Part shown: piece after piece, positions 1 to 21,519 of the stretch
How the letters are laid out: the number at the start of each line of letters is the position of its first letter
Numbering within the stretch: the first letter of the stretch is position 1
From: Candidatus Scotarchaeum otlingeri
Lineage (GTDB): Archaea > Thermoproteota > Nitrososphaeria > Geothermarchaeales > JDFR-13
DNA: 24,000 bases
Reading direction: 5' to 3'
NCBI GenBank assembly: GCA_002011075.2
Contig: MTMA02000006.1
Coordinates: forward strand, 831,261-855,260
Made by a program: the position numbers and the translations under genes
The notes under the pieces: model-generated
Database searches by the model: none
What the model saw: only the letters and a program-made list of their open reading frames with translations
Told to the model about the DNA's origin: nothing

Positions 1-752
1 AGTTGATGTGGAAGGCTATGGAACTAGGTGCGGATGTTGTGGGGGGGATGCCCCATAGCGAATGGACAGATGATGATATGAAGAGGCATGTGGATATAAT
101 TTTTGAGATAGCCAAGGAATATGGTAAGCCCATCGATGCACATGTGGATGAAACAGACGACCCATATTCCAGGAGTATCGAATACTTCGCCTTGAAGACC
201 TTTAGAGAGGGACTATCTGGAAAAGTAACTGCAGACCATGTTTGTGCTTTGTCAGCCTACAATGATTATCATGCAGCCAAAGTTATAGATCTATTGAAGC
301 AAGCGAATGTAAATATAATTACTAATCCAGAGACGAATATCGTTATCGAGGGCCGGTTAGATACTTATCCCAAGAGAAGGGGTTTGACTAGGGTTAAAGA
401 ATTATGGAAAGCAGGGGTAAATGTGTCGTTTGGACAAGATTGTGTACAAGATGCTTTTTATCCCTATGGTAAAGCTGATAGATTACTTACAGCGTGGGCA
501 CTCGCATTAATGGTTCAAATGACGACACCAGAGGAAATAGAGGCTGTCATGAATATGGCGACGTACAATGCGGCAAAGATATTTGGAATAGAGAATAATT
601 ATGGTGTCGATGTTGGTAAAAATGCGGATCTGGTTATCATAGATACTGATAACGTATTAGATGCCATAAGACTACAGCCTGCAAGGCTATGGGTAATTAG
701 GAATGGAGATATCGTAGCCCAGTCAAAGTATACACATGATTTATACCTATAA
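1..752 (+). CDS. Amidohydrolase of the cytosine deaminase (CodA)/AtzC-like family, C-terminal ~250 aa; the 5' end lies upstream of the window
   Basis: The ORF is open to the window edge, so the leading M in the track is a truncation artefact. It is collinear with the C-terminal half of E. coli CodA as I recall it: IDAHVDETDDP vs CodA HCDEIDD; TADH vs TASH; RLDTYPKRRGLTRVKEL vs RFDTYPKRRGITRVKEM; FGQDCVQDAFYP vs FGHDDVFDPWYP. Confidence 0.85.
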   Translation, partial: LMWKAMELGADVVGGMPHSEWTDDDMKRHVDIIFEIAKEYGKPIDAHVDETDDPYSRSIEYFALKTFREGLSGKVTADHVCALSAYNDYHAAKVIDLLKQANVNIITNPETNIVIEGRLDTYPKRRGLTRVKELWKAGVNVSFGQDCVQDAFYPYGKADRLLTAWALALMVQMTTPEEIEAVMNMATYNAAKIFGIENNYGVDVGKNADLVIIDTDNVLDAIRLQPARLWVIRNGDIVAQSKYTHDLYL

Positions 753-777
753 AATTATTTATATCTGGGTCTAAGAA

Positions 778-2343
778 ATGGAGGTAAAGGTAAAGATACT
801 ATATAATGAGTTCCATGACTCGATCCTATTGATGAAAGTATCCGAAAAGATTAGGGATCTTGAAGGTATTATAGATGCTGCTGCATTAATGGCTACCGAG
901 GGAAACAAAGAGATACTTAAAAATATAGGGTTATATATAGATGAGATTGACAAGGCCGATGCAAGCGATTTAATAATAGTAGTTAAGGCTAAAGATGAAT
1001 TGTATGCAGATAAAGCCATTTCCGAAGCTATTTCATTATTATCAAAGGGGGCTGAATATCTTGAGGCCGAGGAGAGATATTATACTTTAGATGACGCCTT
1101 TCAAGCCTTGAGAAACGCTAACCTATGTTTTATAAGTATTCCCGGGGAATATGCCGCAATAGAGGCTGAAAAAGCATTGGAGCTAGGTCTACATGTCCAT
1201 ATATTCAGCAGTAATGTCCCTATCGAGGATGAAGTTAGGCTGAAGGATATTGGGAGAAGAAAGGGATTGTTGGTGATGGGCCCCGATGCCGGTACTTCCA
1301 TAATAGGAGGAGTAGGCCTTGGATTTGCAAATAAGATTAAAAGAGGAGATATAGGGATAGTTGCGGCGAGCGGTACAGGTTTACAGGAGGTGTCCTCGAT
1401 AATATCGCGGTATGGAGGTGGAATTAGTCAGGCAATCGGTGTAGGCTCAAGAGATCTTAGTGATGAGGTAGGTGGAATTACCACATTAATGGCCATAAAC
1501 TACTTTAAGGATGACCCGGAGACAAGAGTTATTCTTCTAGTCTCGAAGCCTCCATCACCTATAATAGCAAAGAAGATATTGGAAGAATTAGGAAATTGTG
1601 GTAAGAAAGTTGTAGTATACTTTATAGGATTACGAGAAAAACTTAATGCAAATGATAATATATTTTTTGCATCTACATTAGAAGATGCAGCCTTCAAAGC
1701 ATTATATCATTCAACCGGATTTCACTATTCAGAAGCTCCTTTTACCATAGATAAAGATGTATTACATAAATTGGTTGAGAAGGAAATTGACAGATTGGAT
1801 AAAGACCAGAGGTTCGTAAGAGGACTATTTACAGGTGGGACCTTTGCAACAGAGTCGCAATTGATTCTCGGCGATTTATTAAATGACGATATTTATAGCA
1901 ATACTCCTATCTATAAGTCCCGTTATATCCATGGTATGGAGAGTAAGGAGAACACTATTATAGATATGGGAGCTGAAGAATTCGTTGAAGGTAGACCCCA
2001 CCCCATGATAGATCCAAGATTACGGAATATGAGGATTATAAAAGAAATGTATGAAACAAACGTTGCTGTTATTCTCTTGGACATCGTCCTCGGATATGGA
2101 TCGCATAATGACCCCGCTGGAGAGGTCAGCAAGTCTGTAATTAAAGCTAGGCAAAATAGTGATAAGTATGTGTCAGTGGTATGTTCCGTTACTGGTACAT
2201 ATGAAGATATACAGAATTATAGGGAGCAGGTGGATAAATTGGAGTCAGCTGGAATAATAGTCATGCCTAGTAATGCACAAGCCACTCGTCTAGCAGCATT
2301 GATAGCTACAAGATGGGATGCATCAAAGTTTCTATGGAGGTGA
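778..2343 (+). CDS. fdrA: FdrA-family protein (succinyl-CoA-synthetase-alpha-like CoA-binding/ligase fold; E. coli FdrA/AllF homologue), lacking the extreme C-terminal tail
   Basis: 521-aa ORF. GLLVMGPDAGTS, IGIVAASGTGLQEV, AIGVGSRDLSDEVGGI, LVSKPP and EGRPHPMIDPRLRN line up with E. coli FdrA segments I recall (GLLVMGPDCGTS, IGVIGASGTGIQEL, GRPHPMIDPTLRN). It is syntenic with ylbE and ylbF homologues. Confidence 0.85.
   Translation: MEVKVKILYNEFHDSILLMKVSEKIRDLEGIIDAAALMATEGNKEILKNIGLYIDEIDKADASDLIIVVKAKDELYADKAISEAISLLSKGAEYLEAEERYYTLDDAFQALRNANLCFISIPGEYAAIEAEKALELGLHVHIFSSNVPIEDEVRLKDIGRRKGLLVMGPDAGTSIIGGVGLGFANKIKRGDIGIVAASGTGLQEVSSIISRYGGGISQAIGVGSRDLSDEVGGITTLMAINYFKDDPETRVILLVSKPPSPIIAKKILEELGNCGKKVVVYFIGLREKLNANDNIFFASTLEDAAFKALYHSTGFHYSEAPFTIDKDVLHKLVEKEIDRLDKDQRFVRGLFTGGTFATESQLILGDLLNDDIYSNTPIYKSRYIHGMESKENTIIDMGAEEFVEGRPHPMIDPRLRNMRIIKEMYETNVAVILLDIVLGYGSHNDPAGEVSKSVIKARQNSDKYVSVVCSVTGTYEDIQNYREQVDKLESAGIIVMPSNAQATRLAALIATRWDASKFLWR
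2336..2343 (+). promoter_or_regulatory. Shine-Dalgarno-like GGAGGTGA overlapping the fdrA stop codon, 4 nt upstream of ATG 2348
   Basis: Read directly: ..tatGGAGGTGAatatATGaag. TGA 2341-2343 is the fdrA stop. Confidence 0.45.
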
Positions 2344-2347
2344 ATAT

Positions 2348-2530
2348 ATGAAGCGGAATAAGATGTTTAAAAAACCTATAATCATTTCGGTGGGAGCCTC
2401 ATATTTCTATCAAGCTCTACGTTTACAGACCGATATGGTAGTTCATGTTGAGTGGCGTCCACCCGCTGGTGGAGATAGGGAGGTTATTGATATCTTAAGA
2501 AAACTTAAGGAAAAATTGAATAAAAAATAA
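2348..2530 (+). CDS. Small protein (60 aa) equivalent to the detached C-terminal tail of FdrA
   Basis: KPIIISVGASYFYQALRLQTDMVVHVEWRPPAGGDREVIDILRKLKEKL resembles the last ~45 aa of E. coli FdrA as I recall them (..INIGLRSFALELQ....VVHYQWSPVAGGNKKLARLLERLQ). ATG 2348 is preceded by GGAGGTGA (2336-2343). It lies in the +1 frame relative to fdrA. The track start at 2318 is less likely because it has no SD. Confidence 0.5.
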   Translation: MKRNKMFKKPIIISVGASYFYQALRLQTDMVVHVEWRPPAGGDREVIDILRKLKEKLNKK

Positions 2531-2593
2531 AGATAATATATTTCCAAAAGTTAATAGTCGATACAGAATAATGAATATATTTGGTGTATAAAG

Positions 2594-3358
2594 ATGATAA
2601 AGTTTAAGATTATAGATCTCACCCAACCATTCAGCGTATTAACCCCTCCATGGCCTACATATACAGCGCCAAAAGTTCGCTACATAAAACGATTGGCTGA
2701 ACATAGGGTAAATGGGATTGAACTGACAACATCAATGCATGTAGGAACACATCTAGACGGCGAATTACATTTTGTAAGTAGTGGACGGGATATAGCTAGC
2801 ATACCCTTGGAACGGCTATTCGGCGAAGGCGTTATAGTTGATATAAGCGATCAAGTCGACGATTACGATATTTATTATCCCGAGCATATTACATCGAAAG
2901 TAACTGTCAAAAAACATGATATACTAATCATACATACTGGATATCATAGGTACGCATGGTATCAAGAAAAAGCAGATGAAGAAAGATACTTCTTAAAACA
3001 TCCTGGACCCTCACTAGAATTTGCAAAATGGGTCAAGGATATGCAGATTAAATGGATAGGGGTGGACTGTGGATCAGCCGATCACCCGATGAATACAGTA
3101 TTAAGGAGACTAAGGCCGGATATAGCGAGAGAGGCGGAGGAGAAACTCGGAAAACCACTGGATGAATTATTCCCCCCTGAACACTACCAGTTAATGCATA
3201 ACTTCCTATTTCCAGATGGAATAATCCACGCGGAGAATCTGGGAGGCGATATTGAAGAGGTACTTAATAAAAGGGCGTTGATAGGTTGTTTCCCATTTAA
3301 ATTCGTAGGCGGAGAATCGGCTCTATGCAGAATAGTAGCATTTATTCCCGAAGAGTGA
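2594..3358 (+). CDS. Cyclase-family metal-dependent hydrolase (kynurenine formamidase / isatin hydrolase-like, PF04199-type)
   Basis: 254-aa ORF. The HxGTHxDxxxH motif is present as MHVGTHLDGELHF. Downstream are WIGVDCGSADHP and GIIHAENLGG, typical of the family. GGTGT lies 6-11 nt upstream of the ATG. Confidence 0.8.
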   Translation: MIKFKIIDLTQPFSVLTPPWPTYTAPKVRYIKRLAEHRVNGIELTTSMHVGTHLDGELHFVSSGRDIASIPLERLFGEGVIVDISDQVDDYDIYYPEHITSKVTVKKHDILIIHTGYHRYAWYQEKADEERYFLKHPGPSLEFAKWVKDMQIKWIGVDCGSADHPMNTVLRRLRPDIAREAEEKLGKPLDELFPPEHYQLMHNFLFPDGIIHAENLGGDIEEVLNKRALIGCFPFKFVGGESALCRIVAFIPEE

Positions 3359-3364
3359 GCGGCT

Positions 3365-4615
3365 GTGTCAACTATCGATGTCGAGGGTGCTAATCAGGAA
3401 GCATTCGGGAGGATAATAAATGGTGAACCATGGGTAATAGATATAGACATTGCTCGTAGAGTCATACCGGGATTAAAGAATAAGATGCTACTTCATGCAG
3501 GCCCTCCCATACAATGGAATAGGATGGCTGGACCAATGAAAGGGGCAGCGATAGGCGCACTGATTTTCGAGGGATGGGCTGATGATGAGGCGGATGCATT
3601 AAAACTTCTTGAGGAAGGTGAAATTGATTTCTCACCCAATCATGATCATGACGCTGTGGGACCGATGGCAGGCATTACAGCACCATCGATGCCTGTTTTC
3701 ATAATCGAAAATCAGAGGTATGGTAATAGGACTTTCTGTACACTAAATGAAGGACTGGGAAAAGTTCTACGTTATGGAGCATATTCCAATGAAGTAATAG
3801 ATCGTCTCAACTGGATGAAGCAAGTTCTAGCGCCAGCATTGAAGGAGGCTATTAAATTGTCGGGTGGTATAAATCTTAAGGAGATAATTTCTAGGGCGCT
3901 TCACATGGGTGACGAATGTCATAACCGAAATTTCGCAGGGACAAGCCTATTCCTTAATGAGATTACACCATATCTTCTTGATCTAGATCTTTCCAGTAAA
4001 GAATTATCATCTATAATAAATTTCATAAAAAATAATGGACATTTCTTTCTAAATCTATCGATGCCAGCGATTAAATCAATGTTAGACCCTGCTCATAACA
4101 TTAAGAATTCAACTATAGTAACGGTAATGTCACGAAACGGCGTTGATTTCGGAATTAGAGTCTCTGGATTAGGGGATGAATGGTTTACCGATGCCGCTCC
4201 TATACCTAAAGGCCTATATTTCCCGGGATATAGCGAAGCAGATGCTAATCCAGATATCGGTGATAGCTCTATAACAGAGACAGGTGGCATAGGGGGATTT
4301 GCAATGGCGTCCGCCCCAGCTATAGTCCAATTTGTAGGTGGTACAGCTCAAGATGCAGTGAACTATACTAAGGAGATGTACAATATAACATGGGGAAAGC
4401 ATAAAGCATTTACAATACCATACCTAAATTTCGTGGGTACTCCAACGGGAATAGATATAATTAAGGTCGTTGAAACTGGAATAACTCCCGTTATAAACAC
4501 AGGAATAGCTCATAAGGAACCGGGCGTAGGTCAAGTGGGTGCAGGCATATTAAGAGCCCCGATATCAGTATTCAACAAAGCTCTAAGAAGGTTTGCCGAG
4601 AAGATAGGGATCTGA
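3365..4615 (+). CDS. ylbE: DUF1116 protein, YlbE/AllG homologue
   Basis: 416-aa ORF with a GTG start 6 nt after the previous stop. There are long collinear matches to E. coli YlbE as recalled: LLHAGPPIQW..MAGPMKGA, FEGWA, AVGPMAGIT, GNRTFCTLNEGLGKVLRYGAY, FGIRVSGLGDEWFT, ANPDIGDSSITETGGIGG and VVETGITPVINTGIAHKEPGVGQVGAG. Confidence 0.88.
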   Translation: MSTIDVEGANQEAFGRIINGEPWVIDIDIARRVIPGLKNKMLLHAGPPIQWNRMAGPMKGAAIGALIFEGWADDEADALKLLEEGEIDFSPNHDHDAVGPMAGITAPSMPVFIIENQRYGNRTFCTLNEGLGKVLRYGAYSNEVIDRLNWMKQVLAPALKEAIKLSGGINLKEIISRALHMGDECHNRNFAGTSLFLNEITPYLLDLDLSSKELSSIINFIKNNGHFFLNLSMPAIKSMLDPAHNIKNSTIVTVMSRNGVDFGIRVSGLGDEWFTDAAPIPKGLYFPGYSEADANPDIGDSSITETGGIGGFAMASAPAIVQFVGGTAQDAVNYTKEMYNITWGKHKAFTIPYLNFVGTPTGIDIIKVVETGITPVINTGIAHKEPGVGQVGAGILRAPISVFNKALRRFAEKIGI

Positions 4616-4634
4616 AATAGCCATTATACTAATC

Positions 4635-5453
4635 TCATATATTTACCTCAGTTGCTACATATATGCCTAAAACCAGATGCTCTCCGCTGCCTGACCCTCT
4701 ATTCAGAATATTCGTTAAATCAATAATTGATTCAGACCTATTGTCTATTAGATTATTGTATAGGCGCTCAAAATCTTCATCCACATGTCCATTTACAGCT
4801 TCCCACAGCATCCACCGGCTAATCATATCCAATCTATCAGATAACGTGTTATATGTAGCCACTGCATATGAAGCTATCTCATCATATAGACCGGATTTTT
4901 TATATAGCCAGTTCAAGAGTGAGAAATACCCAGATATAATATCGATGGCATAAGGTGTTGATCCTAAGCCCCATGTAGCCAAGCTAGGATTTATATCTTC
5001 CATTCTTATTAATCTATCAATCAGTATGCCATATTTATCTCTTATCTCTCTATTTATCGCCATCGTCCCATCAAAATTATGATAAGGAATTCTATGTCTG
5101 TAGAACATTATTAGTGTCCTTATTCTTCTCTTTAGTGCGCTGACATCTTCCTTTTTTGGATATCGGAGATGTGGTCTCCACACTATGTTAGGCAAATATA
5201 TTACGTAGTTATCTAATGTTATTGAATTATCCTCCAGCTCTAATCTTTCTATAGAGCTAAACTCAATGGGATAATCAAGGTTTATAATTCTAATTCCCCT
5301 AGGTCTCATGGATGATAAGATGGTGAATAGAAAGTCCCCGCTATACAGATGGATTGAATGCTTAGTAGAGCCATATATGCTTATCTCATCGAGTCTCTTA
5401 ATATTACTATATAATAAATACCCTATTGACCTTGCACTTAATTCTATACTCAT
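4635..5453 (-). CDS. Probable DUF2877 protein (YlbF/AllH-like)
   Basis: 272 aa, against 271 aa for E. coli YlbF. GLGSTPYAIDIISG resembles the YlbF GLTPSHDDTLSG motif. RGSGSGEHLVLG resembles LGHTSGADTLLG. The N-terminal pattern STKHSIHLYSGDFLFTIL resembles RRAINLMTESGELLTL. Synteny with fdrA and ylbE supports the call. The motif recall is approximate. Confidence 0.6.
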   Translation of the reverse strand: MSIELSARSIGYLLYSNIKRLDEISIYGSTKHSIHLYSGDFLFTILSSMRPRGIRIINLDYPIEFSSIERLELEDNSITLDNYVIYLPNIVWRPHLRYPKKEDVSALKRRIRTLIMFYRHRIPYHNFDGTMAINREIRDKYGILIDRLIRMEDINPSLATWGLGSTPYAIDIISGYFSLLNWLYKKSGLYDEIASYAVATYNTLSDRLDMISRWMLWEAVNGHVDEDFERLYNNLIDNRSESIIDLTNILNRGSGSGEHLVLGIYVATEVNI

Positions 5454-6825: not shown

Positions 6826-8232
6826 GTGAATAAAGAATATAATGTTATCATTGTAGGAGGGGGAACAGCTGGGGCTAGCCTCGGCTTATTACTCGCCAAA
6901 TCTGGTGTGGAGGTAGCTGTATTAGACCGTAAGCCTAGAGATAGGATAGGCGATAAAGTCTGTGGAGATGCGATCGCGGAACACCATTTTGAAGCTACCG
7001 GCCTGCCTAAACCTCCAAAGCAAGCTATTGTATATTACGTCAAAGGCATTAGGGTCTTCCCAATCGACATAGACTATAAGGTGACTATAAGAAGCAGATA
7101 CGGTGGATATGTCGTTGACAGATTAGGATTTGGCCAATTCCTTATCAATGAGGCTGAAAGGAACGGAGCCCATGTTATTCCAAATACACGGGTGACGGAT
7201 CTTATAGTAAAGAATGGGTATGCAGTAGGCGTTAAAACTATCGATCACGTTAGGAATAGAGAAATCAATTATTATGGTAGAGTAATCGTTGACGCATCTG
7301 GATATCAAAGTATTCTTGTTAAGAAAGTACCCGAGGAATGGGGATGGGAAAAAGAGATAGACATAAGAGATAAAATCGCGGCTTATCGGGAAATAACTAG
7401 GCTAGGCGCGGAATTTCCTGATAAAGGATACATATGGATACATTTCATCGATAAATATGCGCCGGGAGGATATGTCTGGATATTCCCCCATTCCCACGAT
7501 AATCTATATGCGAATGTCGGTAATGGAATTCAAGCAGGTATGAATTACCCGAAGCCCCAAATACTAATAGAACAATATAAAAAGGAATATTCTAAGCTTC
7601 GTTATCTATTTAATGATTCAGAGGTATTGGTAAAAGGGCAGTGGCCAATACCTAATAGACGCCCCCGCGGTAAATTGGCTGGCAATGGTTTTATAGCGAT
7701 AGGTGACGCTGCTATTCAGATTGATCCCGCCACAGCCGAAGGTATAGGATATGGAATGTATGGTGCCTACATAGCTTCAAATGTAATTATAGATGCACTT
7801 GAAGATAGGGATGTAAGCCTCAGTTCTCTATGGCGATATAGCCATGGATACATGACTTCAAAATACGGTGTCAACCAAGCTAGGTTCGATGTTTTCAGAT
7901 ATCTACTCCAGGCGTTCGGTGATGATGCCAGATTATTCGCTATTAAACATAAGATACTTAGAGAAGAAGAACTTAGTGCCGCACGGGATTCAGATATAGA
8001 AATAGCTTTCTTTTCTAAGATCGCGAGATTTATGAAAGGCTTGATATATGGGCATCTAAATGTTCTTAAGGTACTAAATTATGTATTTAGAATGATGAAT
8101 CAAGTTAAAGAGCATTACCTATCCTATCCATTAAACCCAGATAACTATGAAATATGGAAGAAGAAAGAGGTTATGCTTTTCGACGAGATAAAAAAGACCC
8201 TTCCTCCCTATATACCCGAAATCTATAGATAA
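6826..8232 (+). CDS. Geranylgeranyl reductase family FAD-dependent oxidoreductase (digeranylgeranylglycerophospholipid reductase-like)
   Basis: GTG start, with an upstream ATG at 6811 that runs into a stop. The Rossmann FAD motif is VIIVGGGTAGAS...LDRK. Also present are GDKVCGDAI, the GGR-type YxWxFP motif as GGYVWIFPHS...VGNG, and AIGDAAIQIDPATAEGIGYGM. Confidence 0.8.
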   Translation: MNKEYNVIIVGGGTAGASLGLLLAKSGVEVAVLDRKPRDRIGDKVCGDAIAEHHFEATGLPKPPKQAIVYYVKGIRVFPIDIDYKVTIRSRYGGYVVDRLGFGQFLINEAERNGAHVIPNTRVTDLIVKNGYAVGVKTIDHVRNREINYYGRVIVDASGYQSILVKKVPEEWGWEKEIDIRDKIAAYREITRLGAEFPDKGYIWIHFIDKYAPGGYVWIFPHSHDNLYANVGNGIQAGMNYPKPQILIEQYKKEYSKLRYLFNDSEVLVKGQWPIPNRRPRGKLAGNGFIAIGDAAIQIDPATAEGIGYGMYGAYIASNVIIDALEDRDVSLSSLWRYSHGYMTSKYGVNQARFDVFRYLLQAFGDDARLFAIKHKILREEELSAARDSDIEIAFFSKIARFMKGLIYGHLNVLKVLNYVFRMMNQVKEHYLSYPLNPDNYEIWKKKEVMLFDEIKKTLPPYIPEIYR

Positions 8233-9561: not shown

Positions 9562-10293
9562 TTATATATGTAGCTTTAGGATATACTCTATTTTCTCCTC
9601 CGATAAAGCTTTTTTCCATCTATCGCCTATAGCGATAAGAACCATTATTCCAGCTACATCGGTTTTTAACCGTCTAAACATATCTAGAATACATTTGTAT
9701 GTACTGCCTGTTCTCAAGATATCATCTACTATCAAAATAATATCTCGTTGTTTGATAAGATCCCTATCTATATAAAATGTATTAATAAATCCATCATCTG
9801 TCGTATAGCTCCCCTCTATATATCTCCTTACACCTACTTCTTTATACTTTTTGGCTATAACAAGTGGTACATTAAGCACTTCTGCAACTATTGTTGCAAA
9901 TGGAACTCCATCAGTGGCTGGCGATACTATTTTGGTTATATATTTTCCGCCGAATCTCTTAGCAACCTCAAGTGCCGCTATCCTTAAGAAAGTTATATCG
10001 CCAATTAATCCTTGATTATTTAGGAATCCCTGTCTATTGATCTTTATTCGCTTTATAATAGCTTCCTCTAGGTCTAGCAGCTGGACTAATCTATTGTAAA
10101 GCTTTTCTGCCTTATCATCGCTGGGGAGAATTCTTCCCCTATAATAGCGGCTCAGTACTGAAGGGGGCTCATTGAGATACTCTGATAACTGATCCCAATT
10201 ATAGTTGCTCTTAACTATTTTGAGTATATCTATTAGAAGCAGCTTCTTCAGCATCTTATTATACATTGATCCCGATGGCTTAGAAGACATCAT
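9562..10293 (-). CDS. Putative transcription regulator with an N-terminal HTH and a C-terminal type-I phosphoribosyltransferase domain (PurR-like architecture)
   Basis: The N-terminal segment WDQLSEYLNEPPSVLSRYYRG looks like an HTH. The C-terminal part has PATDGVPFATIVAEVLNVPLVIAKK and the PRPP-binding loop ILIVDDILRTGST. It is divergently arranged from a nucleoside-type ABC transporter. Confidence 0.62.
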   Translation of the reverse strand: MMSSKPSGSMYNKMLKKLLLIDILKIVKSNYNWDQLSEYLNEPPSVLSRYYRGRILPSDDKAEKLYNRLVQLLDLEEAIIKRIKINRQGFLNNQGLIGDITFLRIAALEVAKRFGGKYITKIVSPATDGVPFATIVAEVLNVPLVIAKKYKEVGVRRYIEGSYTTDDGFINTFYIDRDLIKQRDIILIVDDILRTGSTYKCILDMFRRLKTDVAGIMVLIAIGDRWKKALSEEKIEYILKLHI

Positions 10294-10399: not shown

Positions 10400-10483
10400 A
10401 TGGTAAACCGTAGAGAATTCTTAGTTGGAGGTCTTTCGCTTGCAGCTGGACTGGCTATCGGAGGTGCTGCTGTAGCATCGCTT
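10400..10483 (+). other. Twin-arginine (Tat) type signal peptide of the substrate-binding protein
   Basis: MVNRREFLVGGLSLAAGLAIGGAAVASL has RR-x-FL followed by an Ala/Gly-rich h-region. No lipobox cysteine is present. Confidence 0.55.
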
Positions 10484-11521
10484 AAGCCTACGGAAGAAGT
10501 TGTCACTACTCCTCAAGAAAAGGAGTATCTAAAGGCTGGATGGATATATGTGGGTCCTGTAGGTGATAAGGGATGGACATATGCGCATGACTTAGGTAGA
10601 AAATATGCCGAGGAACGGCTTGATTTCTTGGAAACCATATATATAGAGAGTGTTCAAGAGAAGGATGCCGACAGATACATAGATGAATTAGTTGAGGAAG
10701 GTTGTGATGTGATATTTACTACAAGCTATGGATACATGGATGCAACAATAGAAGCGGGGAAGCGCTATCCTGATAGGATATTTATGCATTGTTCAGGGTT
10801 CAAACGATCAGAGAATGTAGGTACCTATTTTATCCGGATGTATCAGCCCTATTATTTAAATGGGCTTATAGCGGGTGCTGTAACCAAGTCGAATAAACTT
10901 GGTTATGTAGCGGCTTTTCCTATTCCCGAGGTCGTAAGGCATATTAATGCCTTTCATCTAGGAGCTAGAGAAATGAACCCGGATGTAGAGACATATGTGG
11001 TCTGGATATATAGCTGGTTTGATCCTGATGCGGCTAGAAGTGCAGCCGAGACTTTGATAGGCCAAGGTATAGATGTGTTAGCATTTACAGAAGACACGTC
11101 TACAGTTGTTGAGGTAGCCGAGGAAAATGGGGTTTTCTCGTTCGGACATTATACCGATATGAGTATGTATGGGCCTAATGCCCATCTTTCTGGCCAGATA
11201 GCTAACTGGGGAGTTATATATGAAGATGTTCTTATAAGAGCTTACACTGGTGTATGGTATAGTAAGGACTATTGGTGGGGGTTCGCTGAGGGAGCTGTTG
11301 ATATAGCACCTATGAATAAATATGTTCCTAGTGATGTTAAGGCGTTAGTTGAGGAAAGAAAGGCGTTAATGGCTGAATGGACCTTTGAACCATTTACAGG
11401 GCCTATCTATGATAGAGATGGTAATTTACAAGTTCCAGATGGAGAGAGGGCTTCTCACGACCATCTATGGAATATGATGTATTTCCTACCAGGAATAGTA
11501 GGCGAATTGCCTACTACCTAA
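10400..11521 (+). CDS. BMP-family (PnrA/NupN/Med-like) ABC transporter substrate-binding protein
   Basis: 373 aa with an N-terminal Tat-like signal. The mature part is typical of basic-membrane-protein nucleoside receptors (GDKGWTYAHD, CDVIFTTSYGY, GYVAAFPIPEV, AFTEDTS). It is followed by the ATPase and two permeases in nupNOPQ order. Confidence 0.85.
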   Translation: MVNRREFLVGGLSLAAGLAIGGAAVASLKPTEEVVTTPQEKEYLKAGWIYVGPVGDKGWTYAHDLGRKYAEERLDFLETIYIESVQEKDADRYIDELVEEGCDVIFTTSYGYMDATIEAGKRYPDRIFMHCSGFKRSENVGTYFIRMYQPYYLNGLIAGAVTKSNKLGYVAAFPIPEVVRHINAFHLGAREMNPDVETYVVWIYSWFDPDAARSAAETLIGQGIDVLAFTEDTSTVVEVAEENGVFSFGHYTDMSMYGPNAHLSGQIANWGVIYEDVLIRAYTGVWYSKDYWWGFAEGAVDIAPMNKYVPSDVKALVEERKALMAEWTFEPFTGPIYDRDGNLQVPDGERASHDHLWNMMYFLPGIVGELPTT

Positions 11522-11529
11522 TTTTTTTT
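11522..11529 (+). terminator. Oligo-T tract (T8) immediately after the SBP stop codon; candidate partial terminator or attenuator
   Basis: Read directly: TAA(11519-11521) then TTTTTTTT. The next gene starts at 11541. Archaeal RNAP terminates at oligo-T runs. Confidence 0.35.
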
Positions 11530-11540
11530 AGTGTCCCGTT

Positions 11541-13055
11541 ATGAATGATAATATAATAATAAGGGCTAATGGTATAAGAGTAGAATATCCAAATGTAGTA
11601 GCAAATGATAATGTAGATTTCGAATTGCTACATGGCGAAATACATGGCCTATTGGGTGAAAATGGCGCTGGGAAAACAACCTTAGTTAATGTTATTTATG
11701 GCATAAAAAGGCCTGATTCTGGGGAACTATATATTTTTGGAGATAAAATTACTTCCTTCTCCCCCAAGGTAGCACAGAGATATGGATTATATATGATTCC
11801 TCAGCACTCAATACTCGTTGAGCGTCATACAGTTCTTGAGAATATTGCATTGGCCCTTCCTGGTTTCAAATTAAATAAGAAAGCTCTTAGAGCTAAGGTG
11901 ATGAGGCTAATTAATAGGCTTAGATTAGAGCTAGACCTAGATAGTAAGGTAATGGATTTGAGTGTTGGTGAAAAGCAGAGAGTTGAAGCAATAAGGGCAT
12001 TAGTTAGGGGAGCTAAAGTTTTAATAATGGATGAACCCACATCCGTTTTATCTCCAATGGAGACTTATTCATTATTTTCATTCATTAGAAACTTAAAGAA
12101 GGAAGGATTATCAGTTATCTTTATTACCCATAGATTGAGGGAAGTGATGGAGCTTTGCGATAGGGTAACTGTTTTGAGGAAAGGACGTAATATGGGTACG
12201 TTGACAAGAGAGGAAATGACCATAGATAAATTAACAGAATTGATGTTCAGTAGAAAGATTATGATTAGACGATATAATAACAGATCCATGCAAGGTAAAG
12301 TCATATTATCACTAAAGAATGTATCTACATTTAGTAATGGTGGATACATCGGACTAAAGGATATTAGTCTAGATATACGGGTCGGAGAAATCGTGGGGAT
12401 TGTCGGTGTGGCGGGTAATGGACAGAATGAGTTAGCTCAAGTCGCAGTGGGCCTAATTAAGCCACATAGCGGACGAATCATAATAGATGGAGATGACTTA
12501 ACAGGAAAATCAATATTTGAATTCTATAAGAAGGGACTGGCCTATATACCCGACAATATACTGGATGGATTAGTCCTAGATATGACATTGACTGAAAATG
12601 CTATTCTTAAGCTTTATAGAACCTCTGGATTCTCGATGAACCATATAGTTGATTGGGAGACAGCGAAAAGATATACAAGTGAGATAGTCAAGAACCTCGA
12701 GATCAAGACTCCAAGTATAGATGTTAAGATTAAGAGTTTGTCCGGCGGAAACCTTCAGAGATTTATTCTATCAAGAGAATTATCGAATAACCCCAAGATA
12801 ATTATAGCTGTACACCCTAGCCGGGGGTTGGACCTCGAGTCTACAGCGAAGGTTCTGGGTTATCTAGCGAAAATGAAATCGCATTCTGGGATTCTATTGA
12901 TAACTGAGGATCTCGATGAAGCTATTAAAATCTGTGATAAGATAATGATCATATATAAAGGAAAACTTTCGAAGCCCATGAATATAGATAACCTAGATTA
13001 CGAGTTGGCTGGGAAAATGATGTCTGGAGCGGTCTCCATTGAAGAAGCAAATTGA
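11541..13055 (+). CDS. ABC transporter ATP-binding protein, duplicated ATPase (nucleoside/sugar CUT2-type)
   Basis: 504 aa. Walker A GENGAGKTT, signature LSVGEKQRVE and Walker B LIMDEP. The second half has GVAGNGQNEL and LSGGNLQRF. Confidence 0.92.
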   Translation: MNDNIIIRANGIRVEYPNVVANDNVDFELLHGEIHGLLGENGAGKTTLVNVIYGIKRPDSGELYIFGDKITSFSPKVAQRYGLYMIPQHSILVERHTVLENIALALPGFKLNKKALRAKVMRLINRLRLELDLDSKVMDLSVGEKQRVEAIRALVRGAKVLIMDEPTSVLSPMETYSLFSFIRNLKKEGLSVIFITHRLREVMELCDRVTVLRKGRNMGTLTREEMTIDKLTELMFSRKIMIRRYNNRSMQGKVILSLKNVSTFSNGGYIGLKDISLDIRVGEIVGIVGVAGNGQNELAQVAVGLIKPHSGRIIIDGDDLTGKSIFEFYKKGLAYIPDNILDGLVLDMTLTENAILKLYRTSGFSMNHIVDWETAKRYTSEIVKNLEIKTPSIDVKIKSLSGGNLQRFILSRELSNNPKIIIAVHPSRGLDLESTAKVLGYLAKMKSHSGILLITEDLDEAIKICDKIMIIYKGKLSKPMNIDNLDYELAGKMMSGAVSIEEAN

Positions 13056-14082
13056 CGAGTTGATTCTTGCCCTACCTTCATGGGTGTTTCTGCCGATAGC
13101 TATCATCCTCTCCCTAATAATTTTTGGTGTAATACTTGTAGTTAATGATAAGAATCCGATATTAGTTTATCACGAAATAATAATAACAGGCTTCGGGAGT
13201 TATAGAGGTTTAAGTGAAACCTTAACCACCTCCATCCCACTGATATTAGCAGGGGTAGGCTTATCTATTGCTTATAAGGCTAATCTATGGAATATAGGGG
13301 CTGAGGGCCAGCTATATATGGGGGCGATAGGGGCAGGCATCATAGCTTATGAGTTTTCACCTACCCCAGTAAGTCTTATCGGCATGTTTATATTTGGATT
13401 CTTATTTGGTGGGGTATGGGGATTAATACCGGCTTTATTGAAAAGATATTATGAAGTAAATGAGATAATCACGACGCTTATGATGAACTATATAGCCATT
13501 CATATAATGGATTATCTTGTTTTTGGTAGATGGAGAGACCCAACTACATTTGGCTTCCCTTTTACACCATTATTGCCCGATAATATGATTATACCTAGGT
13601 TATTACCAGGTTCCCGGCTACATGCCACAGTAATCATAGCTATATTTGCTTCTATAGCTATCTATCTCCTAATGTATAAGACCACCGAGGGTTATGAGAT
13701 AAGGGTATATGGAGGGAATCCGGAGGCTGCCAGGTACTCAGGTATTAATATAACCAAAGTGCTTCTATTATCAATGTTCCTAAGCGGTGCATTAGCCGGT
13801 ATCGCCGGAGTCGGAGAGTTCGCTGGAATACATAGGAGGTTAACAACAGGCTTTTCCAAAGGATACGGCTATACAGCAATATTGATCGCATGGCTGGGGT
13901 CGCTTAACCCCATATATGTAATGGTTGCAGCTATATTATTCTCCGGCTTTGTAGTAGGTTTAGATGCGCTACAAATATCTATTGGGTTACCATTTGCATC
14001 GATATACCTATTCGAGGGAATTCTGTTAATAGCTATATTGATAAGGGAATATGCGGAAAGGGTGAAAGCGAGATATGTTTGA
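13039..14082 (+). CDS. ABC transporter permease (BPD_transp_2 family, NupP/YufP-like)
   Basis: Polytopic hydrophobic 347-aa ORF with NIGAEGQLYMGA and TTLMMNYI motifs. The TTG start at 13039 overlaps the ATPase stop by 17 nt, so the exact start is uncertain. Confidence 0.82.
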   Translation: MKKQIDELILALPSWVFLPIAIILSLIIFGVILVVNDKNPILVYHEIIITGFGSYRGLSETLTTSIPLILAGVGLSIAYKANLWNIGAEGQLYMGAIGAGIIAYEFSPTPVSLIGMFIFGFLFGGVWGLIPALLKRYYEVNEIITTLMMNYIAIHIMDYLVFGRWRDPTTFGFPFTPLLPDNMIIPRLLPGSRLHATVIIAIFASIAIYLLMYKTTEGYEIRVYGGNPEAARYSGINITKVLLLSMFLSGALAGIAGVGEFAGIHRRLTTGFSKGYGYTAILIAWLGSLNPIYVMVAAILFSGFVVGLDALQISIGLPFASIYLFEGILLIAILIREYAERVKARYV

Positions 14083-15013
14083 GGATATAGCATTATTTCT
14101 AGAGGTTAGCCTCTCCGCAGGCTCTGTATTACTTCTAGCGGCACTAGGTGAGATAGTTGCTGAGAGATCTGGAATACTAAACTTGGGTGTAGAGGGAATG
14201 ATGAGTACGGGAGCACTGGCTGCTTTTTATATATCACTAATGACACAAAATCCGTATCTCGGTATAATTGTCGGTGGGTTATCAGGCCTTCTATTATCTT
14301 TAGCCCATGCATTTACGTCTGTAACTCTGAAAGCTAATCAGATATTGAGTGGTCTAGGGCTGGCTATTCTAGGAATAGGATTAAGCGGCTTCTTTGGGAA
14401 ACCGGTCATAGGCATGATAGCTCCGTCACTTGATATCATAGCTATACCCCTTTTATCTGATATACCGTTTGTTGGGGTGATATTATTTAGACAAGACATA
14501 TTAACCTATTTTAGCCTGATATCTGCATTAGTATTAGGATATATTATATATTATACAAAGCTGGGATTGGTTCTTAGGACGGTGGGTGAAAACCCTGAGG
14601 CGGCTGATTACATGGGGATTAATGTCGACTTGGTAAGGTATATAGCTATCATGATAGGAGGATTATTTGCTGGGTTAGCTGGGGCGCAGTTATCACTTGT
14701 CCACCTACCTACATGGATCGAGAATATGACGGCGGGTAGGGGATGGATAGCCCTTGCATTGGTCATATTCTCGCTTTGGAATCCCATGCTAGCGCCATTT
14801 GCATCTACGTTTTTCGGTGCGTTATCTATATTGCCATATTATCTTCAAATCTTCGGTTTCAGGGTTGGAACGGGTCTTTTGGCGACCATACCTTATCTAG
14901 GTACAGTATTATCTATGACCCTGATATCGATGAGTAGGTTTAGGAAATATCTTGGTGCTCCGGCTGCATTAGCGAGACCATATATCCGGGGAGAGAAGGA
15001 ATTATATAAATAA
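14075..15013 (+). CDS. ABC transporter permease (BPD_transp_2 family, NupQ/YufQ-like)
   Basis: 312-aa hydrophobic ORF. It overlaps the previous permease by 8 nt. Contains LNLGVEGMM and a GENPEAADYMGINV loop. Confidence 0.85.
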   Translation: MFEDIALFLEVSLSAGSVLLLAALGEIVAERSGILNLGVEGMMSTGALAAFYISLMTQNPYLGIIVGGLSGLLLSLAHAFTSVTLKANQILSGLGLAILGIGLSGFFGKPVIGMIAPSLDIIAIPLLSDIPFVGVILFRQDILTYFSLISALVLGYIIYYTKLGLVLRTVGENPEAADYMGINVDLVRYIAIMIGGLFAGLAGAQLSLVHLPTWIENMTAGRGWIALALVIFSLWNPMLAPFASTFFGALSILPYYLQIFGFRVGTGLLATIPYLGTVLSMTLISMSRFRKYLGAPAALARPYIRGEKELYK

Positions 15014-15026: not shown

Positions 15027-16964
15027 TTACTCATATAGTTCTTCTATAAAATCGAAGATCGCATTTGCCAAGCCTTCTTTGTCTCCTACATACTCTCTAT
15101 ATCCGCCCTCTCTAGATATAAGTATAGCGCTATGTATCTCATGCGAAATCTTTGCTAGGTCATTAGCGACTACCATCTCAATACCGAGACTATCTAGCTC
15201 CTCCCGTGCTTTTTTAACCAGCGCCTCCTTATCCACATTGTACTCTAGTTTGAATCCAACGATAAATAGATCATTAAATTGTCTCCGTATCTCAGCTATT
15301 ACTTTAGGGGCGGGTGTAAGATCGATAGACCATTCTCGTCCCGACCTAAATTTATAATCCAAGAACTTTCTTGGTTTATAGTCCAGAATGGCTGCAGCGA
15401 ATATAGCGATATCATGTTTTTCTTTGGATAATTCTTTTTCTGCATTTCTTAACATGTCTTCAGTTGTAATTGCATCCACTACATCAGTGTGCCTCGGCAT
15501 AGATACTTTTCCAGGACCGTAGATAACCGTTACCTTACATCCTCTTTGAAATGCTTCTCGGGCTAACCAATATCCCAGCCGCCCTGTTGACCTATTGGAT
15601 ATATATCTTATTGGATCGATAGGATATTGGGTCGGCCCTGCTAATATAAGTACTTTTCTATCGGACAATCTACTAGCCTTGACAGCTCTAATAATATAGT
15701 CTATAGCTTCATCTGGCTTTGCTATTTTAGCAGCTCCCTCTTCATATATGGGTTCTATGAAATTTACGCCTAGCTCCTTAAGTCTAGATACACTGTTTCT
15801 AAAGATTGGATTATTATATAGCTTTAGATTCATTGCAGGTGCAATTATTAGCCTATTTGGCGCTGTGGCGGCACATAATGTTGTTACAGCGTTATCAGCG
15901 ACGCCATTTGCAATCTTGTTTATAGTATTCAATGTTGCTGGATAGATAATTACGGCATCATATTGGGAGATATGCTCTGCCTTTCCGCTCAATTCGATTA
16001 CTACCTCTTCATCTGATGCCCACTCCATAACTTTAGGGCTGACTCCATAATCCACAGCATATTTAGTCATAAATACTTTTACTTCACCGCCATATCTCCT
16101 AATTAATCTAGCTAATTTAGGGGCTTCTATAGTAGCCACACTTCCAGTGAGACATAGACCGATCTTCTTGCCGAGAAGCTTATTTGACTTTATTCTTAGC
16201 TCATTCTCACCTTCAATAATGTGGCTATAATCTATATAGCTTGTTTTACATGGACTTCCAGATGCATATAATAACCTTGGTTTCTCTCCATAAGCGATTA
16301 TTGTAGATGAGGATGTAACCCAATCTTCACCATGCATACATATGGAGTATCTCGTATATCCATGTTGATGATCCCTAGCGATATTAATGAGCCAATCGAT
16401 GATTCCACCTATTTTTTCAGGGGGGTTCTTAGTAAGCTCCTGAGCTCGCTTAAACCTGGTCATACAAGCCTTATAAGCCGTCTCATCATAGTTCTTGGGT
16501 CTATATCCCTCTGTCGACATGATATTAGTGAATATATGTATACCCCCAGGAAGATCTCTCCTATAGATTTCATTATCATATAATATGTGTACTAGACGGG
16601 AACTATCGCATAAAACGAAATTACCCTTCTTATAGATACCCCTTGAAAGCTCTTTTTCAAGATGATCTAATGCCTGATCCACTGAATCGTAGTTAAGTAA
16701 TATATCCAGCATTAGTTTCCCTCTACTCCTTTTACTCACCCACCATTCACCAGTGTGCTGATCCACAACCATAGCCATCAAACCCTTTTCATTAAAGCCT
16801 ATCCATGTTCCCCCTGAAGCAAGATCAATCGGCATATAGGCTGTATATCTACCGGAATACCGGCTAGGAGGGTATTCGATAGTCCCGATAGGAGCATATC
16901 TATTATCAAGGACTATATAGGGATACTCTTTATTCCATTGATATAATATAATACCGAGGCACAT
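15027..16964 (-). CDS. coaBC: Triple-domain fusion: N-terminal TANGO2/NRDE-family domain (aa 1-~250) + phosphopantothenoylcysteine decarboxylase CoaC (aa ~264-430) + phosphopantothenate-cysteine ligase CoaB (aa ~436-645)
   Basis: Single uninterrupted 645-codon ORF. The N-terminal domain has an MC start, LDNRY (vs NRDE), GGTWIGFNEKGLMAMVVD, KRSRGKLMLDIL and SICMHGEDWVTSSSTIIAYG, which parallel human TANGO2 GGTWLGISTRGKLAALTN, ARGRGELVTHFL and CVRCPGYGTRTNTIILVD. CoaC: KIGLCLTGSVATIEAPKL, YPATLNTINKIANGVADN and APAMNLKLY. CoaB: VLILAGPTQYPIDPIRYISNRSTGRLG, AAAILDYKP and VGFKLE. Confidence 0.85.
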   Translation of the reverse strand: MCLGIILYQWNKEYPYIVLDNRYAPIGTIEYPPSRYSGRYTAYMPIDLASGGTWIGFNEKGLMAMVVDQHTGEWWVSKRSRGKLMLDILLNYDSVDQALDHLEKELSRGIYKKGNFVLCDSSRLVHILYDNEIYRRDLPGGIHIFTNIMSTEGYRPKNYDETAYKACMTRFKRAQELTKNPPEKIGGIIDWLINIARDHQHGYTRYSICMHGEDWVTSSSTIIAYGEKPRLLYASGSPCKTSYIDYSHIIEGENELRIKSNKLLGKKIGLCLTGSVATIEAPKLARLIRRYGGEVKVFMTKYAVDYGVSPKVMEWASDEEVVIELSGKAEHISQYDAVIIYPATLNTINKIANGVADNAVTTLCAATAPNRLIIAPAMNLKLYNNPIFRNSVSRLKELGVNFIEPIYEEGAAKIAKPDEAIDYIIRAVKASRLSDRKVLILAGPTQYPIDPIRYISNRSTGRLGYWLAREAFQRGCKVTVIYGPGKVSMPRHTDVVDAITTEDMLRNAEKELSKEKHDIAIFAAAILDYKPRKFLDYKFRSGREWSIDLTPAPKVIAEIRRQFNDLFIVGFKLEYNVDKEALVKKAREELDSLGIEMVVANDLAKISHEIHSAILISREGGYREYVGDKEGLANAIFDFIEELYE

Positions 16965-18678: not shown

Positions 18679-19455
18679 TCATAGATAATATATGTCTCTC
18701 CTTCTCTCATCTAATAAAGGCAGCAGTTTCCTCATTTCCACAATCTCAGATAGATCAATTTCCACAGCTAACAGTTTTTCCCCTTCACCCGCTTCGATTA
18801 ATATGTTGCCTTTAGGAGAGGCAACTAAAGAGTTACCGCAAAAATGGTATTTATCTGTTCCGACACGATTACATGCAACCATATACACCTGATTTTCTAT
18901 AGCCCGTGCAAGAATCAGAGACCGCCAATGATGTATCCTCTTACACGGCCATTCTGCACATATAAATATTATCTCTGCTCCTTTTAGGGCTAGGGTTCTA
19001 GCGAACTCTGGGAACCTTAGATCGTAACATATCATCATACCTATTTTATAGCCATTTACATTATAGACTTCTACTGAATTCCCAGCCTCAAAAATCTTAT
19101 GTTCGCCCATTAGTTTAATCAGATGTGTTTTATGATAAAATCCAATTAAGCCGTCTGGACCTATTAGATGCATAGAATTATATAGTTTATCTCCCTCCTT
19201 GAGGGGTACTGAACCCATTATATAAATATTGTTCTCTTTTGCTTTTAGAGTAAGTTGAGTGAATAATTCACTATCTCTATTCTCTGCTAAGTCATAGATA
19301 TTATCGGCATATGCTGTCGTCCATAGTTCAGGTAGAAGAATAAATTCAGCTCCCTGAGAAGCCAATTTATCGATAGAGTTAAATGCCTTCCTAATATTAG
19401 TATCCTTATCCCCTATGGAGATATCTAGCTGGGCTATACCTACATGTACCTTCAT
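18679..19455 (-). CDS. Carbon-nitrogen hydrolase (nitrilase superfamily; omega-amidase/MtnU/YafV-like)
   Basis: 258 aa. The Glu-Lys-Cys triad is in LPELWTT, YHKTHL and MMICYDLRFPE. CAEWP...HW..L..ARAIENQ is typical of the Nit/omega-amidase branch. It resembles B. subtilis MtnU as I recall it. The start overlaps the upstream stop (ATGA). Confidence 0.85.
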   Translation of the reverse strand: MKVHVGIAQLDISIGDKDTNIRKAFNSIDKLASQGAEFILLPELWTTAYADNIYDLAENRDSELFTQLTLKAKENNIYIMGSVPLKEGDKLYNSMHLIGPDGLIGFYHKTHLIKLMGEHKIFEAGNSVEVYNVNGYKIGMMICYDLRFPEFARTLALKGAEIIFICAEWPCKRIHHWRSLILARAIENQVYMVACNRVGTDKYHFCGNSLVASPKGNILIEAGEGEKLLAVEIDLSEIVEMRKLLPLLDERRRDIYYL

Positions 19456-20117: not shown

Positions 20118-20142
20118 TATGTATCCTCATCAACAATTAAGG

Positions 20143-21465: not shown

Positions 21466-21519
21466 CCCAATATCATAGTTAATATACGATAATAAATTCT
21501 GTCATAATACTGAGTTACG

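Follow-up and report, generated by a model that had tools for sequence, protein, structure and literature searches.

The closest described relative of the system analyzed here is the Escherichia coli AllFGH complex, which in purified form is an oxamic transcarbamylase that interconverts oxalurate plus phosphate with carbamoyl phosphate plus oxamate (PMC11326118). AllFGH was recognized as an enzyme only in 2024, and this E. coli reaction is the single one known for it. E. coli K-12 carries two such triads, one in the order allF-allG-allH-allK beside the allantoin genes and an uncharacterized one, yahE-yahF-yahG, with yahI and yahJ. We analyzed a 24,000-nucleotide stretch of Candidatus Scotarchaeum otlingeri DNA (assembly GCA_002011075.2, contig MTMA02000006.1, positions 831,261 to 855,260 of the forward strand), hereafter the window, whose first 5,453 nucleotides carry an AllFGH-like triad together with two hydrolase genes. 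A preliminary description of this DNA had cited the E. coli triad, under the names fdrA-ylbE-ylbF, as reported to encode oxamic transcarbamylase, which the purified E. coli complex bears out, and had proposed that an uncharacterized ring-opening or ureide route feeds an FdrA-type complex in this archaeon, a proposal that the comparative context assembled below supports.

The window cluster is not an archaeal oddity, being one member of a large, undescribed class of loci in which AllF and AllG are linked to a cyclase-family gene. We favor, with moderate confidence and from comparative analysis, a function in which the cluster would encode an AllFGH-like enzyme that cleaves an N-carbamoyl amide (acyl-urea) with phosphate and is fed by a route starting from an N-heterocycle. 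The archaeal cluster has its own variations on the class, namely an aldehyde oxidoreductase (AOR) with a ferredoxin, a free linker, an AllH that is convergent in orientation and divergent in sequence, and a feeder enzyme of the CodA type.

In the oxidative pyrimidine pathway of Rhodococcus, the enzymes are a uracil/thymine dehydrogenase, an AtzD-family barbiturase, and a ureidomalonase, and urea is released hydrolytically. To our knowledge, no genes have so far been assigned to the uracil/thymine dehydrogenase activity. The oxidative route is named as a pathway in a preprint (bioRxiv 10.1101/2025.05.19.654654), which also proposes that YgeW lets anaerobes gain ATP by cleaving a ureido group phosphorolytically.

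Composition of the archaeal operon

Gene families were assigned from a listing of open reading frames (ORFs) and from Pfam and NCBIfam profile searches, and matches to the amidohydrolase, AllF, cyclase, AllG, and AllH families were obtained for every gene that the preliminary description had named in the cluster. An exact-sequence lookup of AllF recovered the upstream flank on a 109-kb metagenome contig that is identical to the window over 12.3 kb (locus L001). The resulting operon has the order ferredoxin, AOR-type oxidoreductase, CodA-like amidohydrolase, AllF, 60-residue module, cyclase, and AllG, with AllH convergent, and positions 1 to 5453 of the window represent its downstream two-thirds. 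The ferredoxin and oxidoreductase genes overlap by 8 nt, and the subsequent gaps up to AllG are 12, 25, 4, 63, and 6 nt. All ORFs of the cluster are intact. The G+C content of the cluster (0.38 to 0.44) is similar to that of the remaining window, and there is no sign of recent transfer.

The AllG/DUF1116 subunit (positions 3365 to 4615, + strand; 416 residues; PF06545, 330 bits) is a short form without an N-terminal module. It is 47% identical to E. coli AllG, 49% to YahG, 60 to 63% to Bacillota proteins, and 64% to a Korarchaeota ortholog, and its best nonself matches, at 60 to 65% identity, come from Korarchaeota, Bathyarchaeia, Bacillota, Halanaerobiales, and Thermotogae. All 98 of the 98 invariant columns of family alignment A1 are kept, and the best match in the Protein Data Bank (PDB) is the uncharacterized protein 3CLQ (470 bits). 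The preliminary description had remarked on very high YlbE similarity for an archaeon-bacterium comparison. The similarity is indeed high, but it is a family-wide property rather than a special feature of this gene, since the family itself is strongly conserved, with a mean column identity of 64% across archaea and bacteria.

The AllF/FdrA-like subunit (778 to 2343, + strand; 521 residues) scored 484 bits on NF004760, above the cutoff of 433, and matched PF00549, PF02629, and PF27530. An N-terminal HMA-like domain is followed by domains resembling the alpha subunit of succinyl-CoA synthetase (SCS). The protein is 39% identical to YahF and 38% to E. coli AllF, its best PDB match is E. coli FdrA (3DMY), and it keeps 67 of the 70 family columns that are conserved at 95% or more, including the SCS-alpha-like S198-G-T-G201 and H408. 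We considered His408 as a counterpart of the SCS phosphohistidine and found no support for it, as the SucD-alignable part of AllF ends before the histidine loop and His408 lies in another domain.

A stand-alone ORF of 60 residues (2348 to 2530, + strand; motif VEWRPPAGGD) follows AllF, with its ATG 4 nt past the AllF stop codon, in another frame, and preceded by a Shine-Dalgarno-like GGAGGTGA motif. It matches positions 503 to 555 of the FdrA model (NF004760) and aligns with residues 513 to 555 of E. coli AllF, the C-terminal tail, and with residues 5 to 55 of YahG, an N-terminal extension. Of 85 loci, 79 have the module: it is joined to AllG in 46 and to AllF in 17, and it stands free in 15, among them the Korarchaeota locus and loci L089 and L096. 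The preliminary description had called this ORF a 60-residue tail, which is right in that it matches the FdrA C terminus, but it is better described as an independent, conserved, and mobile module that is fused elsewhere to AllF or to AllG. An origin as a frameshift or pseudogene remnant of AllF was rejected in view of its own Shine-Dalgarno-like motif and the stand-alone layout in 15 loci. Because the module is fused now to AllF and now to AllG, this “Rosetta-stone” pattern suggests that it mediates contact between the two subunits.

The cyclase gene (2594 to 3358, + strand) encodes a 254-residue, metal-dependent protein of the kynurenine-formamidase/isatin-hydrolase fold, which we assign to the cyclase-family hydrolases from its PF04199 match (119.5 bits). 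Its predicted metal motif, H49-x-G-T-H53-x-D55-x3-H59 (HxGTHxDxxxH), is invariant in 24 AllG-linked orthologs, to which the protein is 47 to 69% identical. Kynurenine formamidases in the PDB match it weakly and over the N-terminal ~80 residues alone, and an assignment as an arylformamidase ortholog was rejected with a TIGR03035 score of 52.7 bits against a cutoff of 223.

The CodA-family (cytosine-deaminase-like) amidohydrolase gene has 411 codons, of which the window contains the last 249 (3 to 752, + strand; PF07969 and PF01979); its start lies 484 nt before window nucleotide 1, and the gene is complete at positions 8740 to 9975 of L001. The full-length protein scored 413.5 bits on the NCBIfam model PRK07572 (“cytosine deaminase”), just under the cutoff of 438, and is 38% identical to E. 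coli CodA, 27% to YahJ, and 64% to its Korarchaeota ortholog. It retains the four CodA metal ligands (aligned to H62, H64, H215, and D314 in E. coli sequence numbering) and the catalytic Gln, Glu, and His (Q157, E218, and H247 in sequence numbering; Gln156, Glu217, and His246 otherwise), with Cys replacing the second Asp of the DD pair (D315 in sequence numbering; Asp314 otherwise). A CodA/AtzC-like amidohydrolase upstream of the triad had been put forward as a difference from the E. coli context. The gene is present and nearer CodA, but an amidohydrolase beside the triad is already found in E. coli in the form of yahJ.

AllG and AllH are convergent, as previously described, with AllH on the - strand and 19 nt between the stop codons. 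The divergent AllH/DUF2877 subunit (4635 to 5453, - strand; 272 residues) scored 43.2 bits on PF11392, above the gathering score of 25, and profile-profile comparison (hhalign) with 25 family members gave a probability of 98.8% and an E value of 6e-17 over 238 columns. BLAST aligned it over its full length with the Korarchaeota AllH at 22% identity (E value, 6e-10). A word-indexed single-sequence search found only the protein itself and an exhaustive phmmer search gave five weak matches, and, because such searches found almost nothing, membership had to rest on the Pfam and profile-profile comparisons. By these comparisons, the product of 4635 to 5453 belongs to the DUF2877/AllH family, and the DUF2877 assignment on which the preliminary description depended holds. 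The AllH family evolves rapidly, with a mean column identity of 24%. In the window protein, the PSGDD and TSGxD motifs read PYAID and GSGEH, so that Ile170 and His259 replace two Asp residues that are conserved in more than 90% of the family and retained in the Korarchaeota ortholog. An AlphaFold2 model of AllH (pLDDT, 87.6; pTM, 0.85) consists of an N-terminal beta domain and a C-terminal helical bundle, and a Foldseek search of the PDB with this model found no fold match (best E value, 0.11; TM score, 0.13). A ribokinase-like fold, guessed from a GxGDDF-like motif, was rejected given this confident model without a PDB match.

Upstream of the amidohydrolase and on the same strand are genes for a 127-residue 4Fe-4S ferredoxin-like protein and a 638-residue AFOR-family enzyme with full-length AFOR_N and AFOR_C domains (PF02730 and PF01314). 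The latter most resembles two broad-range aldehyde oxidoreductases of the classical kind, 1AOR and 9MQX, which it matches over its full length at 461 to 468 bits, and its sequence places it in the classical AOR type. Beyond these two genes lies a divergent ABC transporter of the Bmp/PnrA (nucleoside) type. The preliminary description had pointed to this flank as a place for a carbamate kinase; the ferredoxin, AOR, and ABC transporter were found instead. We detected no xanthine dehydrogenase (XDH)-family molybdenum (Mo) hydroxylase in the window or the upstream flank, the ferredoxin and AOR occupying the operon instead. Searches of the 33 kb formed by the window and the recovered flank also found no allantoinase, allantoate amidohydrolase, or ureidoglycine or ureidoglycolate enzyme (allB/C/D/E), so that the absence of these genes and of a carbamate kinase, noted earlier for the visible part, extends to the upstream flank.

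Downstream of the cluster, the window genes (phosphoglycerate kinase, geranylgeranyl reductase, alanine aminotransferase, and others) are unrelated housekeeping genes. An archaeal origin of the window is supported by the geranylgeranyl reductase at 6826 to 8232, whose best match is the Sulfolobus acidocaldarius enzyme, and by the clustering of AllG with sequences from archaeal metagenome-assembled genomes (MAGs).

Cyclase-linked loci in bacteria and archaea

One genome per species was scanned with the AllG alignment, and the 80 closest loci of ~600 genome hits were kept. ORFs were called by a simple procedure and clustered, and cluster representatives were assigned with Pfam and NCBIfam. The survey is biased to the 80 closest AllG sequences. 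These loci are mostly bacterial and together span over a dozen bacterial phyla as well as several lineages of archaea, and their recurrent core is AllH-AllF-AllG-cyclase, with AllH counts by BLAST clustering being an undercount. Cultured organisms with the cluster include Clostridium rhizosphaerae YIM B02515, Alkaliphilus transvaalensis, Calidifontibacillus oryziterrae, Lysinibacillus mangiferihumi, and Tissierella pigra. The window conforms to this cyclase-linked arrangement, having AllF, AllG, and the PF04199 cyclase adjacent and codirectional and AllH nearby.

Neighboring genes were counted in the 41 loci flanked by 4 kb or more on each side. AllF was adjacent to AllG in 40 of these, and a cyclase-family gene was present in 28 and directly adjacent to AllG in 22. 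The cyclase inserted between fdrA and ylbE, which the preliminary description had listed among the differences from E. coli, is therefore real but not peculiar to the window, being the commonest partner. An XDH-family large subunit, usually with FAD and 2Fe-2S subunits, occurred in 25 of the 41 loci and an amidase or CN-hydrolase in 19, followed by a family-III CoA-transferase (13 loci), a PucR regulator (11 loci), a conserved protein of ~240 residues discussed below (f7; 11 loci), and an NCS2 permease (10 loci). The permeases gave their top scores on uracil-permease and RutG models and were closer to uracil than to xanthine permease, whereas the CoA-transferases scored similarly on CoA:oxalate and formyl-CoA transferase models. 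Three Halanaerobiales loci contained within the cluster a Na+-translocating biotin decarboxylase of the mmdA (methylmalonyl-CoA decarboxylase) type.

A rough neighbor-joining tree of AllG, built without support values, contained three groups. E. coli AllG grouped with carbamate-kinase loci without a cyclase or XDH-type enzyme, and E. coli YahG grouped with the cyclase-free carbamate-kinase loci L019, L020, and L025, one of which, the Tissierella locus L020, carries a CodA-like gene as well. The window AllG fell in the third and large group, the remaining cyclase/XDH-linked loci, within a clade of archaeal MAG sequences. This rough tree suggests that the cyclase-linked clusters are a third type of AllFGH-like system, apart from allFGH-allK and yahEFG-yahI-yahJ. 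The window cluster, without allB/C/D/E or allK and with an AllG outside the E. coli AllG group, is no copy of a known allantoin locus.

The genes are co-conserved in relatives. A Korarchaeota MAG (L087) has the same order of cluster genes, including a stand-alone module of 55 residues and a convergent AllH, in flanks unrelated to those of the window. Identities between the two archaeal clusters are 67% for AOR, 45% for ferredoxin, 64% for the amidohydrolase, 48% for AllF, 61% for the small module, 70% for the cyclase, 64% for AllG, and 22% for AllH. Since the AOR is conserved at 67% in the Korarchaeota cluster, it travels with the other genes. As in the window, no allantoinase, allantoate amidohydrolase, or ureidoglycine or ureidoglycolate enzyme was found in the Korarchaeota locus. 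XDH-linked versions of the system occur in a Thaumarchaeota MAG (L065), which adds f7, and in L089 and L096, which add a carbamate kinase, an NCS2 permease, and f7. In an Elusimicrobia locus (L022), the order is AllH, AllF, AllG, CodA-like gene, and cyclase, and the amidohydrolase is 47% identical to that of the window.

Several genes near these clusters were recorded as observations in their own right. The Korarchaeota cluster has an extra gene between the AOR and amidohydrolase genes (L087 5021 to 6127, + strand), which encodes a Creatinase_N/Peptidase_M24 protein with weak best matches to PepQ and ectoine hydrolase and could point to another or a further substrate, of the cyclic amidine or guanidino kind. 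Proteins of 333 to 362 residues without an assigned family lie beside the cyclase-AllG pair or AllH in four archaeal loci (L090 8138 to 9148, L091 8140 to 9141, L098 8141 to 9142, and L087 12221 to 13309; all - strand), and we detected no similarity of these proteins to AllH, to f7, or to one another.

Two paralogous Bmp/PnrA-type ABC transporters flank the window cluster, one at window positions 10400 to 15013 (+ strand) and the other at L001 1492 to 6264 (- strand), and an adenine-phosphoribosyltransferase-like gene (window 9562 to 10293, - strand) lies between the cluster and the former. The f7 protein (243 residues here; L001 33 to 764, - strand) is encoded ~9.2 kb upstream of window nucleotide 1, at the far end of the transporter operon. 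It recurs beside AllF-AllG-cyclase in 16 survey loci and at L089 1969 to 2718, often with a thiolase-like and a DUF35 gene behind it, and, together with a Bmp/PnrA-type transporter, it is directly upstream of AllF in the Anaerolineales loci L083 and L060. The protein has 25 invariant residues; searches of Pfam, NCBIfam, and the PDB gave no match, with weak GNAT matches in only 5 of 17 members.

Candidate route, alternatives, and remaining window genes

By homology with E. coli AllFGH, a complex of AllF, the 60-residue module, AllG, and AllH would convert an acyl-urea and phosphate to carbamoyl phosphate and an amide. The cyclase and an oxidoreductase would produce this acyl-urea from an N-heterocycle, one opening the ring and the other adding the missing carbonyl, with the AOR and ferredoxin serving as the oxidoreductase in the window and the XDH-family Mo enzyme in bacteria. 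The CodA-like enzyme would deaminate an amino-substituted precursor, providing entry into the route. The steps might proceed in one of the two following orders: hydroxylation to barbiturate and then ring opening, or opening of uracil at N1-C6 to give an aldehyde and then oxidation. The ring-opening-first order would explain the replacement of the XDH-family enzyme by a classical AOR, as both families oxidize aldehydes.

The substrate that we favor is cytosine or uracil (and thymine), which would be degraded via (methyl)ureidomalonate to carbamoyl phosphate and (methyl)malonamate. Ureidomalonate is oxalurate plus one CH2 and is an acyl-urea. In bacteria, malonamate could then pass through an amidase, a CoA-transferase, and a (methyl)malonyl-CoA decarboxylase to acetyl-CoA. 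The bacterial neighborhoods, with their uracil-type permease, PucR, amidase, CoA-transferase, and (methyl)malonyl-CoA-type decarboxylase, best fit a three-carbon product of this kind, and the hints of pyrimidines and malonate comprise the NCS2 permease scores, the Halanaerobiales decarboxylase, the CodA catalytic set, and the Bmp/PnrA transporters of the window and Anaerolineales. We nevertheless put forward a pyrimidine route via ureidomalonate only tentatively, as a possible assignment drawn from gene context. A little more tentative still is the broader idea that the cyclase-linked clusters might serve anaerobic, energy-conserving pyrimidine degradation, in which carbamoyl phosphate would yield ATP and an archaeal tungsten AOR with ferredoxin would replace XDH.

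A number of observations weigh against the acyl-urea function or parts of the route proposed to feed it. No carbamate kinase (AA_kinase) was found in the 33 kb of window and upstream flank or within 10 kb on either side of the Korarchaeota locus, and only 8 of the 41 survey loci have one. The window AllH, without its two near-invariant Asp residues, may be impaired. In some archaea, the cyclase and AllG form a pair that lacks AllF and AllH in its vicinity, with an AOR 5 kb away, and one archaeal locus has AllG alone. As for the oxidation step, among PDB structures the bacterial Mo subunit most resembles 4-hydroxybenzoyl-CoA reductase, a match that is silent on uracil, and classical AORs of the 1AOR/9MQX type are not known to us to hydroxylate heterocycles. 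An aldehyde intermediate finds no support in the cyclase-positive, XDH-negative loci, in none of which an aldehyde dehydrogenase was found. Finally, we found no description of a cyclase-linked system in the searched literature.

The first alternative is that the complex is a true oxamate carbamoyltransferase, as in E. coli, which would act in the degradation of purines and allantoin or of parabanate-type compounds, oxalurate being formed when the cyclase opens a cyclic precursor. The presence of all three subunit families and the 47% identity between the AllG proteins are as expected from this explanation, and the CoA-transferase III and amidase of the bacterial loci could equally take oxamate via oxalate to oxalyl-CoA. 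We consider it unlikely nonetheless: the allantoin and ureidoglycolate enzymes are missing from the window, its flank, and the Korarchaeota locus, and the window AllG falls outside the tree group of E. coli AllG and loci with carbamate kinase only. The linked genes also point elsewhere, in that the Halanaerobiales decarboxylase is of the methylmalonyl-CoA type rather than an oxalyl-CoA decarboxylase and the permease is nearer uracil than xanthine permease.

Alternatively, the cluster could be an archaeal ortholog of the E. coli yah cluster that acts on the direct product of the amidohydrolase, with the cyclase and AOR being accessory or unrelated. The conservation of the cyclase (70%) and AOR (67%) between the two archaeal clusters, which is like that of AllG, means that they are not accessory, and we regard this explanation as improbable. 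Although yahEFG-yahI-yahJ likewise joins the triad to a CodA-like amidohydrolase, the window enzyme is 38% identical to CodA and only 27% to YahJ, and the window and flank have no counterpart of the yah carbamate kinase. AllF and AllG are marginally nearer YahF and YahG than E. coli AllF and AllG (39 versus 38% and 49 versus 47%), and the Tissierella locus of the YahG group has a CodA-like gene, yet YahG clusters with carbamate-kinase-linked, cyclase-free loci, away from the window.

We also considered whether AllF might, in line with its older annotation, resemble an (NDP-forming) acyl-CoA synthetase that acts on a carboxylic acid made by the AOR, in which case the genes would form an aldehyde-oxidizing and acid-activating unit instead of one that yields carbamoyl phosphate. 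AllF has the SCS-alpha-like CoA-binding and CoA-ligase domains, its operon also encodes a classical AOR and a ferredoxin, and the bacterial relatives include CoA-transferases and thiolase-like genes. Against this, purified E. coli AllFGH is a transcarbamylase (PMC11326118), no cluster contains an ATP-grasp (SCS-beta-like) subunit, and the alignment of AllF with SucD stops before the phosphohistidine loop, with no conserved His there; moreover, the carbamate kinase, amidases, and nucleobase permeases of the relatives indicate ureide chemistry. Such a synthetase is very improbable. Least probable, in our assessment, is a decaying or partly functional cluster in which AllH has lost catalytic residues and the triad is no longer a unit, for which the two replaced AllH Asp residues retained in the Korarchaeota ortholog, the 22% AllH identity beside 48 to 70% for the other subunits, and the archaea that keep cyclase and AllG alone would speak, but which is at odds with the intact and tightly spaced ORFs, the confident full-length AllH model (pLDDT, 87.6), the retention of nearly all family-invariant residues in AllF and AllG, and the fast evolution of AllH across the family (24% mean column identity).

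Given a conserved context that is absent from the searched literature, it is probable that the AllFGH family acts on at least one more substrate, in another pathway. If phosphorolysis of a pyrimidine-derived acyl-urea to carbamoyl phosphate is true, it would constitute a new ATP-yielding anaerobic catabolism of nucleobases, might assign genes to uracil/thymine dehydrogenase, and would give an AOR a new physiological role. The archaeal variants, with AOR and ferredoxin in place of XDH and a free linker of 60 residues, should be useful for defining subunit contacts and the order of reactions, and AllH, which has no solved structural relative, makes the complex of structural interest.

Elsewhere in the window, a tight codirectional set of genes at 18679 to 23930 (- strand) encodes a CN-hydrolase, a DUF2848 protein, a RuBisCO-like protein, an FGGY (xylulokinase-like) kinase, and, extending toward the window end, a class-III aminotransferase. 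The best models for the RuBisCO-like protein were 2,3-diketo-5-methylthiopentyl-1-phosphate (DK-MTP-1-P) enolase and type III RuBisCO, with scores below all cutoffs. At 15027 to 16964 (- strand) lies a gene for a 645-residue CoaBC (Dfp; phosphopantothenoylcysteine synthetase/decarboxylase) with an N-terminal TANGO2-domain fusion.

Comparison with described systems

The window cluster shares with E. coli AllFGH the same three families and the small C-terminal AllF segment, which is a separate ORF in the window, and the shared chemistry is likely to be reversible carbamoyl transfer between phosphate and an amide nitrogen. It differs from E. coli AllFGH in sequence, with AllF at 38% and AllG at 47% identity and AllH undetectable by BLAST, and in having an AllG in another tree group and no adjacent carbamate kinase or allantoin genes. 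In their place, the window has a cyclase between AllF and AllG, a CodA-like amidohydrolase, AOR, and ferredoxin upstream, and a convergent AllH. The E. coli yah cluster resembles the window in combining the triad with an enzyme of the amidohydrolase superfamily, and the fusion of the small module to the YahG N terminus shows that this module moves between AllF and AllG. Unlike the window, the yah cluster includes the carbamate kinase gene yahI and lacks a cyclase, XDH, and AOR.

The proposed route would resemble the oxidative pyrimidine pathway in that the ring is oxidized and hydrolyzed to ureidomalonate and then to malonate-level products, but the ring would be opened by a cyclase-family enzyme and the ureido group would leave as carbamoyl phosphate. 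In phosphorolytic instead of hydrolytic ureido cleavage, as a means of conserving energy, and in the use of an XDH homolog, it would be comparable to YgeW with carbamate kinase in anaerobic uric acid degradation (bioRxiv 10.1101/2025.05.19.654654). YgeW, however, is a single subunit with the classical fold of aspartate and ornithine transcarbamylases, whereas AllFGH-like enzymes are unrelated three-subunit complexes.

We know of no AOR in ureide or heterocycle catabolism. The window AFOR aligns over its full length with Pyrococcus furiosus AOR (1AOR) at 461 bits and is paired with a 4Fe-4S ferredoxin-like gene. Unlike the P. furiosus AOR, it sits in an AllFGH-like operon, where bacteria have an XDH-family Mo enzyme.

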